Assembly: GCA_052170415.1 (NCBI GenBank)
Contig: JBQNAO010000003.1
Span: forward strand, 43,400-107,399
DNA length: 64,000 nucleotides
Direction: 5' to 3'
Source of the DNA: Ottowia sp.
GTDB lineage: Bacteria; Pseudomonadota; Gammaproteobacteria; Burkholderiales; Burkholderiaceae_C
A program made the translations under genes and the position numbers. Positions within the stretch are counted from its first letter, which is position 1. Each line of letters begins with the position of its first letter. Of the stretch, positions 128 through 16,873 are shown piece by piece. The notes under the pieces are model-generated. The model was given only the letters and a program-made list of their open reading frames with translations, made no database searches and had not been told where the DNA came from.

Positions 128-1885
128 ATGGCGGATGCGGATTGGCGCATGTCTGAATATTTTTCTTTGAAACTGGAAGCGGATTGGCCGCGTTATGGCG
201 AGCTGCTGGTGCGGCAGGGCAAGCTGGGTGCGCGGGATCTGGATCGGGCGCTGGCGGCGCAGCGGGAAATGGGCGGCGCGCTCGATCGCGTGTTGGTCAG
301 CCTGGGGCTGGTGTCGGATGTGGATGCGGCGCGGGCGCTGGCCGAGCATCTGGGGCTGTCGTTTGTTCCGGGGGATGCCTTCCCGGCCGTGCTGCCCGAG
401 CCGCAGGGGCTGCAAGAGGGTTTCCTGCGCGCACACCACGTGCTGCCGCTGCAAATTGACGAGGCCGGACGCTTGCATGTGGTGATGGCCGCGCCGCATG
501 ACGCCTTCGTGCGCAAGGCGCTGCGCCTGAGCACGGGGCTGGAGGTGCTGCCGGCTCTGGGCCTGGCCGTCGAGATTGACAGGGGGCTGGATCGTCTGTT
601 TGCCGACCCGGATGCGGAGGAGCAGGGCCCCGAATCAGGCTTTGGCCTGCTGGGCGAGGGCGATGCGGGGGACTTTGTCGAGCATCTGCGCGATCTGGCC
701 AGCGAAGCGCCGGTGATCCGGCTGGTGAACAACATCATCGGCCGCGTGATCGAGCTGCGCGCTTCCGACATTCACCTGGAGCCTTTCGACGACGGCCTGC
801 ACGTGCGCTACCGCGTGGACGGCGTGCTGCTGCCGGGCGAGATCGTGCCGGCGGCGCAGGGGGCGGCGGTGAGCTCGCGCGTGAAGCTGCTGGCGCATCT
901 GGACATTGCCGAGCGCCGCTTGCCGCAGGACGGGCGCATCAAAACGCGCGTGAAGGGCCGCGAGCTGGATTTGCGCGTATCCACCGCGCCCACGGTGCAT
1001 GGCGAGAGCGTGGTGATGCGCGTGCTCGACCGCGCCAGCGTGCGCTTCAGCCTGGAAGACATGGGCTTTGCGAAAGACACGCTGGAGCGTTTCAACCAGC
1101 TCATCGCCCGCCCGCACGGCATCTTGCTGGTCACCGGCCCCACCGGCTCGGGCAAGACGACCACGCTGTATGCGGCGCTGGCCAAGCTGGATGCGAGCAC
1201 GCAAAAAATCATCACCGTGGAAGACCCGGTGGAATATCAGCTCGAAGGCATCAACCAGATTCAGGTGCACGCACAAATCAACCTGACTTTTGCCAACGCG
1301 CTGCGCTCCATCCTGCGGCAAGACCCGGACATCATCATGATTGGCGAGATGCGCGACGGCGAAACCGCGCAGATTGCCGTGCAGTCTTCGCTCACCGGCC
1401 ACCTGGTGCTTTCCACCCTGCACACCAACACCGCCGCCAGCGCCGTGGTGCGCATGCAGGACATGGGCGTGGAGCGCTACCTGATTACTTCCACCGTCAA
1501 TGGCGTGCTGGCGCAGCGGCTGGTGCGCCGCTTGTGCGACGCCTGCAAAACCCCCGTGCCCGCGCCCGCGCCGCTGCTGCAAAGCTCGGGCCTGGGCCGG
1601 TTCATGAAGCCGGGCGCGCCCATGTATCAGGCCGTGGGTTGCGAGCGTTGCCGGGGCACGGGCTACAAGGGACGCACGGGCATACACGAGCTGCTGGTGG
1701 TCGATGACGCCCTGCGCGCGGCCATCTTGCAGGGCAAGGACGCCGCCAGCCTGCAAACGCTGGCCGTGCAGCGCGGCATGTTCACCCTGTATGACGATGG
1801 TTTGCGCAAAGTGGCTGCGGGGCAGACCAGCCTGGATGAAGTGCTGCGCGTGACGCAGGACAGCCAGGAGGGCGGCCATGCCTGA
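128..1885 (+). CDS. gspE: Type II secretion ATPase GspE/XpsE with N-terminal MshEN-like domain
   Basis: 585-aa ORF with Walker A GPTGSGKTT, ILRQDPDIIMIGEMRD, and the tetracysteine cluster CDACK...CERCRGTGY typical of GspE. The N-terminus carries RYGELLVRQGKLGARDLDRALAAQ. Confidence 0.9.
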   Translation: MADADWRMSEYFSLKLEADWPRYGELLVRQGKLGARDLDRALAAQREMGGALDRVLVSLGLVSDVDAARALAEHLGLSFVPGDAFPAVLPEPQGLQEGFLRAHHVLPLQIDEAGRLHVVMAAPHDAFVRKALRLSTGLEVLPALGLAVEIDRGLDRLFADPDAEEQGPESGFGLLGEGDAGDFVEHLRDLASEAPVIRLVNNIIGRVIELRASDIHLEPFDDGLHVRYRVDGVLLPGEIVPAAQGAAVSSRVKLLAHLDIAERRLPQDGRIKTRVKGRELDLRVSTAPTVHGESVVMRVLDRASVRFSLEDMGFAKDTLERFNQLIARPHGILLVTGPTGSGKTTTLYAALAKLDASTQKIITVEDPVEYQLEGINQIQVHAQINLTFANALRSILRQDPDIIMIGEMRDGETAQIAVQSSLTGHLVLSTLHTNTAASAVVRMQDMGVERYLITSTVNGVLAQRLVRRLCDACKTPVPAPAPLLQSSGLGRFMKPGAPMYQAVGCERCRGTGYKGRTGIHELLVVDDALRAAILQGKDAASLQTLAVQRGMFTLYDDGLRKVAAGQTSLDEVLRVTQDSQEGGHA

Positions 1886-3107
1886 ATTTGTCTGGCGCGC
1901 CGCGCATGCCGACGGCCAAAGCGCCGAGGGGCGCACTGAGGCGGCTTCGCAAGACGAGGTGCTGCGCCAGCTGCGCGAGCGGGGGCTGACGCCCATCCGC
2001 GTGCAGGAGGCCACGGGCGATGAGGCCGCAGGCGGCGCGCTGCCCCGGCGGCGTCAGCGCGTGGATCGCGGCCCCGTGCGGCAGGCCGATGTGCTGGCGC
2101 TCACCAGCGAGCTTTCCATCATGCTGCGCGCGGGCCTGGCGCTGGATGCGGCTCTGCGCGTGCTGATCGACATGAGCCACAAGCCCAGCGTCAAGGTCAT
2201 GCTGGAGAAGGTGCTGGAAGACGTCAAGGCGGGCGCATCGCTCAGCCGTGCGCTGCTGGCCTGGCAGGCGCATTTCGGCGATTTCTATATCAACATGATT
2301 CGCTCGGGCGAGATCAGCGGGCAGATGCCCAAGGTGCTGGAGCGTCTGGCCGCGCACATGCAGCGCATGAAGGCCCTGCGCGACAGCGTGGTGTCGGCCA
2401 CGCTGTATCCGGCCATCTTGCTGCTGGTGGCCGTGCTGTCGCTGGTGGGCATGCTGGGCTTTGTGGTGCCGCAGTTTGAAAAGCTGTTCATCGATCTGGG
2501 CGACGCCCTGCCCATGCCCACGCGCATCGTCATGCTGCTGGGGCAGGGCTTCAAGCATTACGGCCTGATCGTCGCCGTGCTGGTGGCGCTGGCAGGCGGG
2601 CTGATCTGGCGCTGGCTGCGCACGCCCGCCGGGCGCGACTGGTGGCAGGCGCGCCTGATCAGCCTGCCCGTGCTGGGGCCGCTGGTGCACAAATATCAAA
2701 TCACCCTGTTCGCGCGCTCCCTGGGCACCTTGCTGGACAACGGCGTGCCGCTGCTGCCTGCGCTGCACATTTCGGTGGAAACCGTCACCCACCGCGCCTT
2801 GCGCGCCGCGCTGGCCAAAATGGCGCCGCTGGTCAAGGAAGGCTCGCGCATCGTCCCTGCCATGCGGGTGACGGGCATTTTTGAACCTTTGGCCATCAAC
2901 CTCGTCCGAGTGGGCGAAGAAACCGGCCGCGTGGGCGCCATGATGGGCGAGCTGGCCGACATCTTCGACCGCGATGTGGAAACCGGCATCAAGCGCAGCC
3001 TCACCCTGCTGGAGCCGCTGATGATCCTGGTGCTGGGTATGTTGATTGCCGCCATCATCGTTTCCATCCTGCTGGGCATCATCTCGGTCAATGACCTGGT
3101 CAAGTGA
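1878..3107 (+). CDS. gspF: Type II secretion inner-membrane platform protein GspF
   Basis: 409 aa with an internally duplicated T2SSF-like architecture and hydrophobic segments. The ATG overlaps the gspE stop by 8 nt, and AGGAGG lies upstream. Confidence 0.88.
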   Translation: MPEFVWRAAHADGQSAEGRTEAASQDEVLRQLRERGLTPIRVQEATGDEAAGGALPRRRQRVDRGPVRQADVLALTSELSIMLRAGLALDAALRVLIDMSHKPSVKVMLEKVLEDVKAGASLSRALLAWQAHFGDFYINMIRSGEISGQMPKVLERLAAHMQRMKALRDSVVSATLYPAILLLVAVLSLVGMLGFVVPQFEKLFIDLGDALPMPTRIVMLLGQGFKHYGLIVAVLVALAGGLIWRWLRTPAGRDWWQARLISLPVLGPLVHKYQITLFARSLGTLLDNGVPLLPALHISVETVTHRALRAALAKMAPLVKEGSRIVPAMRVTGIFEPLAINLVRVGEETGRVGAMMGELADIFDRDVETGIKRSLTLLEPLMILVLGMLIAAIIVSILLGIISVNDLVK

Positions 3108-15938: not shown

Positions 15939-16873
15939 GCGCCCCTGAAAACACCCCGGCCCCCACCGGCGTGCGCGCTGCCTGGGCCCGGCGCTGGCAG
16001 CGCCTGCGCACCGAAGCGCGCGATGCGCTGGAGCTGGTGCTGCTGCCAGGTCTGGCCGCCGTGCTGCCCTGGCCCTGGTGCTTTGCCCTGTTCAAGCGGC
16101 TGGCCCGCCTGCGCTGGCTCTACGGCCCGGTGTGCGAGCGCGCCCTGGCTCAAGCGCAGCAGCGCGGCATGGCGGCCGATCCGGCGCACTGGCTGTGGCA
16201 GCGCCGCCTGGTCACGCTGGTGGATCACGCCGATTACTACCTGGGCCGCTTTCGTGGCGACGGCTGGCTGCGCCGCCACGTGCAGGTGCAAGGCCAGTGG
16301 CCCGCGCCCGATCGGCCCGGCATGCTCTGCACCTTCCACTGGGGCGCGGGCATGTGGGGACTGCGCCATGCGCGCCAATCGGGCCTGCACGCGCACGCGC
16401 TGGTGGCCTCGCTGAACTCGCAAGCCTTTCAGGGGCGCACCGTGCTGGGCTGGTATGCCCGCGCGCGCACCCGCGAAGTCGCCCGAGCCCTGGGCCGCCC
16501 CACGCTGGACGTATCCGCCTCCTTGCGCCCGGCCGTGCGCGCCCTGCGCGCCAACGAGCAAGTGCTGGCCGCCGTCGATGTGCCCGCCGATCAGGTGGCC
16601 GCCAGCGAGCCGCTGCAACTGTGCGGCATGCGCGCGCGCGCCCCACGCGGGCTGCTGCGCCTGGCGGCAGAGCAGGGCGTGCCCGTGACGATCTACATCA
16701 CCGGGCTGGACATGCGCAGCGGCCAGCGCTTTTTGCGCATCGAACAACTCGCGCGCGAGGGCGACACCTCCGCGCTCATCATCCAAACCTTCGCCCGCCT
16801 GCAAGACCTGCTCTACGAAGACCCCGCCGCCTGGCACTTCTGGAGCGAAGCTGAGCGATTTTTCGAGCGCTGA
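15935..16873 (+). CDS. Possible lipid A-type (LpxL/HtrB-like) acyltransferase family protein
   Basis: ATG at 15935 overlaps the wzt stop (ATGA). N-terminal TM, and FHWGAGMWGL at the position of the HxGNWE motif but without the acidic residue. Assignment is tentative. Confidence 0.4.
   Translation: MSAPENTPAPTGVRAAWARRWQRLRTEARDALELVLLPGLAAVLPWPWCFALFKRLARLRWLYGPVCERALAQAQQRGMAADPAHWLWQRRLVTLVDHADYYLGRFRGDGWLRRHVQVQGQWPAPDRPGMLCTFHWGAGMWGLRHARQSGLHAHALVASLNSQAFQGRTVLGWYARARTREVARALGRPTLDVSASLRPAVRALRANEQVLAAVDVPADQVAASEPLQLCGMRARAPRGLLRLAAEQGVPVTIYITGLDMRSGQRFLRIEQLAREGDTSALIIQTFARLQDLLYEDPAAWHFWSEAERFFER

Follow-up and report, generated by a model that had tools for sequence, protein, structure and literature searches.

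What purpose might a type II secretion system (T2SS) serve when its genes run, on one strand, into those of a lipoprotein, a secreted protein of 513 amino acids (aa) and a Wzm/Wzt-type exporter? The question is raised by positions 128 to 16,873 of a 64-kb window (the whole stretch of DNA analysed here, 64,000 nucleotides (nt) of contig JBQNAO010000003.1 from Ottowia sp., positions 43,400 to 107,399 of the forward strand), for which the original prediction had proposed a locus for the biogenesis of a surface layer (S-layer) or other surface protein. We consider it quite likely that the block is the npdA surface-layer locus of an Ottowia species, in which the S-layer protein NpdA would be exported by the adjacent T2SS and anchored with the aid of a glycan-export unit. 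By sequence the 513-aa protein belongs, at full length, to the NpdA family of surface-layer proteins, and with this assignment the expectation of a surface-protein locus was borne out. The coordinates of all features are collected in Table 1.

The assignment is based on BLASTP alignments that run end to end with NpdA of Paracidovorax citrulli (37% identity, E 1e-84) and over the full length of the Delftia acidovorans orthologue (38% identity, E 2e-98). Experiments have shown NpdA to form the S-layer in two organisms: in Delftia sp. Cs1-4 through knockout, immunogold labelling and proteomics (PMC3110197), and in P. citrulli AAC00-1 through knockout, proteomics and cryo-electron microscopy (cryo-EM; PMC10765051); in both, the npdA knockouts lose the S-layer. 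The tie between the window protein and the verified one passes through the homologue of P. citrulli DSM 17060 (L054), whose 25-aa signal peptide and mature mass of 52,399 Da match the 25-aa signal peptide and 52,394 Da reported for Aave_4148 (PMC10765051). The same study presented NpdA as a new protein family with Ottowia among the npdA-bearing genera, and observed an S-layer by cryo-EM in 16 of 17 npdA-bearing cultures.

The window protein carries a 22-aa signal peptide, as had been expected of it, with the cleavage site between AHA and V, and its mature form has a mass of about 51 kDa (51.0) and a pI of 5.4. It is 100% identical to the NCBI entry ACTTJV_01925, 'MAG: hypothetical protein [Ottowia sp.]'. 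More than 2800 NpdA homologues were found, some carrying the name 'cell surface protein', and an exhaustive profile search returned 3320 representatives at 50% identity, the best 150 of which, those listed, each had E < 1e-113. Across 30 members four Cys residues were invariant and a C-terminal ...TLP(H/Y)RW motif was conserved. Neither Pfam nor NCBIfam gave a match to NpdA even at E = 5, and a sequence search of the PDB was empty, so that the check for homology to a soluble enzyme family, suggested together with the original prediction, came back negative. AlphaFold2 (AF2) gives a confident, mostly beta model (pLDDT 83.6, pTM 0.87), and it is without a PDB counterpart: Foldseek returned nothing at E < 1e-3, with only weak local resemblances to galectin and jelly-roll folds. 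NpdA is not mentioned in a 2025 structural review of S-layers.

The composition of npdA was expected to stand apart from that of its neighbours, and this is the case, with a GC content of 0.54-0.55 against 0.65-0.68 nearby and a third-position GC content (GC3) of 0.60 against 0.82. The difference resides in T-ending codons, the shares of GGT (0.58 in npdA, 0.05 in neighbour genes), CGT (0.64 and 0.05), GCT (0.44 and 0.05) and CCT (0.59 and 0.08) all being raised, while the share of A-ending codons is unshifted (A3 of 0.07, the same as in the neighbours). In GC-rich proteobacteria such a shift in the four-fold families is the signature of translational selection on highly expressed genes. We therefore take the codon bias to mark npdA as a predicted highly expressed gene under translational selection, which fits an S-layer protein; in the envelope of these Ottowia strains no other protein is probably as abundant as NpdA. 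Horizontal import of a low-GC gene was considered and ruled out, since A3 stays as in the neighbours and only T-ending codons of four-fold families are shifted.

The 149-nt gap between the lipoprotein gene and npdA contains the candidate promoter that had been proposed there. Conservation supports it: its two hexamers keep their place in eight of ten Ottowia-clade upstream regions, with the -35 element as TTGA(A/G)(T/A) and the -10 element as (TGn)TAGCAT; a sigma-70 consensus scan did not flag this promoter, and it was recovered by comparative alignment. The ribosome-binding site GGAG at 11583 is conserved as GGAGTC in the same alignment. Promoter and hairpin of the 5' untranslated region (UTR) together make up a potential strong expression signal.

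Between the window and the closest related loci (L084 and L085) npdA is 82% identical at the nucleotide level, falling to 61-78% in its central part (12045-12800), while the genes on either side and the spacer of 664 nt behind npdA are 97-100% identical. Further npdA alleles in the database show 76-91% protein identity. In strains otherwise nearly identical npdA is thus a hot spot of divergence, which suggests diversifying selection on, or allele replacement of, its surface-exposed part. Phage or host immunity could be the selective agent.

Whether the genes around npdA belong with it was assessed by comparing 80 loci, taken from one genome scan with the NpdA family alignment and including up to 10 kb of flank per side. 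Among the genera represented are Ottowia, Comamonas, Delftia, Acidovorax, Paracidovorax, Diaphorobacter, Simplicispira, Giesbergeria, Curvibacter, Rubrivivax, Azohydromonas, Azoarcus and Thauera. The window proteins were searched against them by tblastn, with only the loci that have sufficient flank entering each denominator. The lipoprotein lies just upstream of npdA in 68 of 76 loci, with gspD (65/70), gspM (65/68) and gspG (62/66) also upstream, and wzm (67/74) and wzt (65/73) are found downstream on the same strand; the adjacency is accordingly conserved in relatives, as the original prediction required. The 312-aa open reading frame (ORF) that follows wzt was detected downstream in 24 of 69 loci. 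Three loci (L028, L072 and L079) have an inverted gsp cluster, which nonetheless still abuts a block running from npdA to wzm, wzt and the 312-aa ORF; an inversion of gsp genes beside npdA has also been described in Simplicispira (PMC10765051).

A parvulin-type peptidyl-prolyl isomerase (PPIase; Rotamase in Pfam) is encoded between npdA and wzm at 72 of the 80 loci, and it was not found at this place in the window or in its closest relatives L084 and L085. Six loci of the Rubrivivax type are without wzm and wzt. In this Rubrivivax group, and in Azoarcus, where there are insertions, glycan genes come directly after npdA or the PPIase gene (GT2, methyltransferase-GT2, TPR-GT41 and Acyl_transf_3). 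The genes for a TPR-GT41 protein, which resembles O-GlcNAc transferase, and an Acyl_transf_3 protein adjoin npdA in Azoarcus and Rubrivivax loci (L063, 11518-15034; L051, 14372-16717), and these are candidates for the glycosylation of NpdA. Elsewhere among the relatives WbdD/WbdA-like and WecA-like genes adjoin the transporter, and in another Ottowia the genes after it encode a methyltransferase/GT2 protein of 1255 aa and a WecA-type GT4.

The T2SS itself was read correctly at the outset: eleven plus-strand genes lie between 128 and 10874 in the order E-F-G-H-I-J-K-L-M-(N/C)-D, as seen from the ORF listing and the Pfam and NCBIfam matches. All core components (E, F, G, H-K, L, M and D) are present, those for J and K being weak matches at a conserved position. 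The 178-aa gspC/N-like protein stayed below threshold (GspC_delta 25.6 bits against a cut-off of 150; T2SSC E 0.0066), and no PDZ domain was found in it with Pfam or NCBIfam. Translational coupling, which had been ascribed to the whole series, holds for the six of ten junctions that overlap (five ATGA, one of 8 nt); the other four are gaps of 24-110 nt. No prepilin peptidase (GspO/PilD) was predicted to lie in the window, and indeed no Peptidase_A24 match was obtained among the approximately 50 ORFs of the window that were scanned with Pfam and NCBIfam. This enzyme is encoded apart from the T2SS in many T2SS-bearing genomes, and it is probably encoded elsewhere in this one.

Two N-termini within the T2SS deserve mention. 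Within residues 22-80 of GspE (window positions 128-400) there is RYGELLVRQGKLGARDLDRALAAQ and, after it, a second segment like it; we take these segments to resemble the tandem 24-residue motif by which MshEN domains bind cyclic di-GMP (c-di-GMP), and with such repeats it is conceivable that S-layer secretion could be regulated by c-di-GMP through GspE. The N-terminus of GspD (8490-8570) reads MFDPISPRTALSLALASWLAAAC and then VTQ, with LAAAC as a possible lipobox. Clear LAGC or LAAC lipoboxes occur at the same site in GspD orthologues of Ottowia and Delftia, not in those of Comamonas or Acidovorax, and with the lipobox confined to the Ottowia/Delftia clade the secretin may be a self-piloting liposecretin there.

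The lipoprotein was confirmed to begin 25 nt past the end of gspD and to carry a lipobox. The lipobox Cys24, together with Cys93, Cys99, Trp129 and Trp136, is invariant among 32 orthologues. Its database matches are all sub-threshold (DUF4864, E 0.028; a de novo NTF2 design, E 1.2); it possibly has an NTF2-like fold, and a role as pilotin would be speculation. The window protein ends in a tail of about 40 residues rich in Ala, Pro, Gln and Glu, which is missing in the orthologues of about 140 aa from other genera.

Downstream of npdA the picture is less compact than was thought. The exporter had been described as following directly, and this part of the original prediction did not hold: a strong terminator, with an 11-bp stem (13207-13232), and 664 nt of non-coding DNA (13137-13800) separate npdA from wzm, so that wzm-wzt forms a transcription unit apart from npdA. 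The spacer contains no credible ORF and no PPIase remnant detectable by tblastn. Both the ABC-2 permease and the Wzt-like ATPase that had been proposed were matched, the latter also by TagH/Wzt-type NCBIfam models. The carbohydrate-binding-type domain ascribed to the C-terminus of the ATPase is less certain, the Wzt_C match reaching 25.4 bits (1.5e-5), below the cut-off of 30.4; the orthologues in L082 and L088 match this domain clearly. Searches of the window ORFs yielded no chain terminator, no WecA and no O-antigen-ligase-like or oligosaccharyltransferase gene.

The genes wzm, wzt and that of the 312-aa protein are joined on one strand by successive 4-nt overlaps, the last starting at the ATG at 15935. 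The suggestion that the 312-aa ORF might encode an acyltransferase gained support from its AF2 model (pLDDT 91.1). Foldseek matched the model to PatA (5f2z; E 7e-9, probability 1.00, TM 0.57-0.76) and LpxM (5kn7/5knk; E 4e-7 to 1e-6) and to nothing else. Pfam gave no match, and the PatA model of NCBIfam hit two of 16 orthologues (E 1.3e-3). The family, with about 900 'hypothetical' homologues and no Pfam model, has an invariant His135 in FHWGxGMW, lacking the acidic residue at +5 of an HX4D/E motif, and D97-H98-A99-D100 is likewise invariant. The modelled fold thus supports a predicted LPLAT-fold acyltransferase. When the family was sampled independently of NpdA, three of three members were situated in an npdA-type module (secretin, small ORF, Pfam-less protein of about 510 aa, PPIase, wzm, wzt, acyltransferase), and the acyltransferase therefore looks like a regular component of such modules.

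Taken together, the following route can be proposed. NpdA would reach the periplasm by Sec and fold there, probably with two disulfides in view of the four invariant Cys, and we infer that it would cross the outer membrane through the upstream T2SS, to which that system would be dedicated, with the family-specific outer-membrane lipoprotein taking part. At the surface it would assemble into a paracrystalline S-layer. The separate wzm-wzt-acyltransferase unit would export an undecaprenol-linked glycan of the O-polysaccharide type, and the acyltransferase may modify the lipid part of the glycolipid. This glycan would most likely provide an anchor of the lipopolysaccharide (LPS) type for the NpdA lattice, and less likely be placed on NpdA itself. 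We infer the link between wzm-wzt and the S-layer from synteny and from the finding that the S-layer protein of D. acidovorans needs LPS in order to reassemble (Engelhardt et al., as cited in PMC3110197). What makes the glycan connection plausible is this LPS-dependent reassembly, the reported glycosylation of NpdA in D. acidovorans Cs1-4 (PMC3958437) and the wzm-[sps-vapA]-wzt layout of A. salmonicida. A stronger version would have a supra-operon with the T2SS and lipoprotein as machine, NpdA (usually with the PPIase as its periplasmic chaperone) as cargo and a dedicated Wzm/Wzt-acyltransferase anchor pathway, in which the PatA/LpxM-fold family, unrecognised until now, would make or alter a glycolipid tether for the NpdA lattice, the glycan unit lying outside general O-antigen synthesis and the layout having arisen independently of Aeromonas. 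We regard this version as tentative and on the doubtful side.

Several points weigh against the proposal that the block exports and anchors an S-layer. The sequence comes from a metagenome-assembled genome (MAG) of Ottowia sp., where the block is known from its genes alone, and one of the 17 npdA-bearing cultures had no visible S-layer (PMC10765051). Mutational proof of T2SS-dependent NpdA export is still to come in any species (PMC10765051). All 80 loci belong to the Betaproteobacteria, so that the conservation could in part be explained by inherited gene order rather than functional constraint. To these must be added the terminator and the 664-nt gap ahead of wzm; the parvulin PPIase present at 72 of 80 related loci, which tblastn did not find anywhere in the window; and the glycosyltransferases, equally not found in the window ORF scans. 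The second gsp cluster of P. citrulli, where npdA lies beside gsp1 (PMC10765051), is counted here as well, and dedication of the T2SS to NpdA is plausible but unproven.

The most obvious alternative for the upstream half is a general-purpose T2SS, with NpdA as one substrate among many or merely a neighbour. The system has all canonical Gsp components with ordinary domain content, no second T2SS was found in the ORF scans of the 64-kb window, and the mutants that would tie NpdA export to the T2SS are those still awaited. Nevertheless, gspD is kept next to npdA in 65 of 70 loci from several families, even after inversion; in P. citrulli, which has another gsp cluster to spare, npdA sits with gsp1; and the related Aeromonas sps system is a dedicated one. 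We consequently hold a general-purpose system to be unlikely, if well short of negligible. Much less can be said for NpdA being a soluble enzyme that is secreted, or else a porin of the outer membrane, as might be read from its aromatic C-terminal residue (…LPYRW) and its richness in beta-strands: no enzyme or porin family was matched in Pfam, NCBIfam or the PDB, and full-length homology to proven S-layer proteins makes this a very improbable reading.

For the downstream half, wzm, wzt and the acyltransferase gene might form an ordinary exporter of O-antigen or exopolysaccharide, standing beside npdA by inherited order. A separate transcription unit, comparison loci that are exclusively betaproteobacterial and the six Rubrivivax-type loci devoid of wzm/wzt would all suit an exporter of this kind, which has a real chance of being correct even if we think it the less probable account. 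It fits poorly with a linkage that survives rearrangements and insertions (L003, L028, L063, L072 and L079), and with the glycan genes that occupy this position where wzm/wzt are absent. Among the loci sampled, the PatA/LpxM-fold family was seen only in npdA modules (the three of three noted above), an independent parallel exists in Aeromonas, and the cited requirement of LPS for NpdA reassembly also speaks for a connection to the S-layer. Alternatively, the exported glycan might be transferred onto NpdA instead of serving as an LPS anchor. Gram-positive S-layer glycoproteins offer a precedent in their Wzm/Wzt-dependent slg clusters, and both the reported glycosylation of NpdA in D. acidovorans Cs1-4 and the TPR-GT41 genes adjoining npdA in Azoarcus and Rubrivivax loci would agree with it. 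On the other hand, the window ORFs searched included neither an O-antigen ligase-like gene nor one for an oligosaccharyltransferase, the enzyme coupled to the exporter has the fold of a lipid acyltransferase, and LPS dependence of assembly is documented in the cited account. Glycosylation of NpdA by this exporter is therefore in our estimate improbable, and we keep to the npdA surface-layer locus with a probable LPS-type anchor.

Gene order alone had in this case led to the right biology, and the assignment gives an identity to a Pfam-less 'hypothetical protein' of Ottowia, the strains concerned appearing to be Comamonadaceae associated with animals or humans, or with wastewater. The PPIase, Wzm/Wzt and the PatA-like acyltransferase are candidates for two steps left open by the NpdA papers, namely folding of the NpdA lattice and its tethering to LPS.

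Table 1. Features of the npdA block, in window coordinates, with the evidence for each.
Feature	Position	Strand	Evidence and remarks
gspE, T2SS ATPase with MshEN-type N-terminal domain	128..1885	+	Pfam T2SSE 1.8e-143, MshEN 1.6e-11
gspF, inner-membrane platform protein	1878..3107	+	Pfam T2SSF 7.5e-53; 8-nt overlap with gspE
gspG, major pseudopilin	3132..3569	+	Pfam T2SSG 1.3e-38, N_methyl
gspH, minor pseudopilin	3680..4213	+	N_methyl, GspH
gspI-like minor pseudopilin	4210..4668	+	N_methyl; ATGA overlap
gspJ-like minor pseudopilin	4665..5345	+	N_methyl, weak T2SSJ; same gene call in L084
gspK-like minor pseudopilin	5342..6202	+	weak T2SSK_1st; position; conserved across 80 loci
gspL	6234..7331	+	PilN-type C-terminal domain 1.2e-8; position
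gspM (subtype b)	7328..7888	+	T2SSM_b 1.4e-16
gspC/N-like protein, 178 aa	7885..8421	+	sub-threshold GspC_delta 9e-6, T2SSC 0.0066
gspD, secretin	8490..10874	+	TIGR02517 456 bits, 2e-136; Secretin, Secretin_N and N0 domains
Conserved outer-membrane lipoprotein, ORF 'X' of the published npdA neighbourhood	10900..11445	+	lipobox LTLAGC
Candidate npdA promoter (TTGAGT, 18-nt spacer, (TGc)TAGCAT)	11495..11524	+	comparative alignment
Conserved 5'-UTR stem-loop (CTCAAGG...CTTGGGAG)	11532..11561	+	Ottowia-clade alignment; minimum free energy of the UTR -15.5 kcal/mol
npdA, predicted S-layer protein, 513 aa	11595..13136	+	full-length homology to two NpdA orthologues
npdA intrinsic terminator	13207..13240	+	11-bp stem (13207-13232) with 6 GC pairs, then T8
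Non-coding spacer at the PPIase position of related loci	13241..13800	.	99% identical in L084/L085
wzm, ABC-2 permease	13801..14637	+	ABC2_membrane 2e-12
wzt, ABC ATPase with C-terminal Wzt_C-like domain	14634..15938	+	ABC_tran 1.3e-20; GTGA overlap with wzm
Predicted PatA/LpxM-fold membrane-associated acyltransferase, 312 aa	15935..16873	+	AF2/Foldseek; ATGA overlap with wzt

The remainder of the window consists mostly of housekeeping genes, and an Rfam scan of it gave no matches. The acyltransferase gene is followed by that of a YidB-like protein with a long tail rich in Ala, Pro and Glu (17264-18004, plus strand), which is kept in L084 (90% protein and 91.7% nucleotide identity) and is more divergent than its neighbours. 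An island of low GC content at about 22500-24500 (0.52-0.60 against about 0.69 in the adjoining DNA) contains the gene of a protein of 439 aa with an HSDR_N domain of type I restriction (23012-24331, minus strand) and was probably acquired as a fragment by horizontal transfer. A 494-aa autotransporter-like protein with an autochaperone AC_1 domain, short and maybe truncated, is encoded at 43956-45440 (minus strand), and a 370-aa CHRD-domain protein near it at 40436-41548 (minus strand). Two further transport loci, a tripartite efflux set of the MacB-type ABC/FtsX/HlyD kind (24694-29317, plus strand) and a second ABC-2 transporter pair of ATPase and permease (52525-54263, plus strand), are unlinked to the S-layer block.

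Loci of the NpdA-T2SS type are already known from publications of 2011 and 2023 (Shetty 2011; Gajbhiye 2023). The published neighbourhood has 12 gsp genes and one hypothetical ORF 'X' ahead of npdA, an order largely conserved in Beta- and Gammaproteobacteria (PMC10765051). In the portions of text and supplement text of that paper available to us neither 'ABC' nor 'transporter' occurs, and the available portions of the Delftia papers of 2011 (PMC3110197) and 2014 (PMC3958437) do not mention a downstream transporter. Linkage of the PPIase, Wzm/Wzt and acyltransferase genes to npdA hence appears to be unreported in the NpdA literature searched. What remains new is this conserved glycan and acyltransferase module downstream of npdA, loss of the PPIase from the window lineage, the allelic hypervariability of npdA and a fold of NpdA for which no relative has been solved.

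The nearest systems are those of P. citrulli AAC00-1 and Delftia Cs1-4, which share with the window the gspE-to-D order, the single hypothetical ORF before npdA and wzm-wzt downstream of it (L054, L018). The window lineage differs from them in lacking the PPIase and any glycosyltransferase or methyltransferase genes after the transporter, and in the extra Ala/Pro/Gln-rich tail of its lipoprotein; its GspD has a lipobox-like N-terminus, unlike that of Acidovorax and Comamonas.

The layout of npdA has been likened to those of Aeromonas vapA, Pseudoalteromonas slr4 and Caulobacter rsaA (PMC10765051). The Aeromonas analogy drawn by the original prediction proved apt: in A. salmonicida the genes are ordered wzm-[spsE..L T2SS, hypotheticals, vapA]-wzt inside the O-antigen cluster, and the A-layer is tethered to LPS (PMC4483657). 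In both cases a T2SS adjoins the gene for an S-layer protein of about 50 kDa and a Wzm/Wzt exporter flanks them. The S-layer genes of A. salmonicida split wzm from wzt, however, whereas here wzm-wzt is intact and downstream, and the roles of sps and wzt have been shown by mutants in Aeromonas, while in Ottowia they are deduced from the genes. Pseudoalteromonas tunicata is another proteobacterium in which an S-layer gene, that of Slr4, adjoins a T2SS cluster (PMC7821379, as cited in PMC10765051), but it lies upstream of the cluster, where npdA lies downstream, and encodes a different protein family. Caulobacter crescentus is also Gram-negative and has an LPS O-antigen anchor and secretion genes beside the gene for its S-layer protein RsaA (PMC6978808); for its export RsaA uses a type I system and a C-terminal signal, in contrast to NpdA with its Sec signal peptide and neighbouring T2SS.

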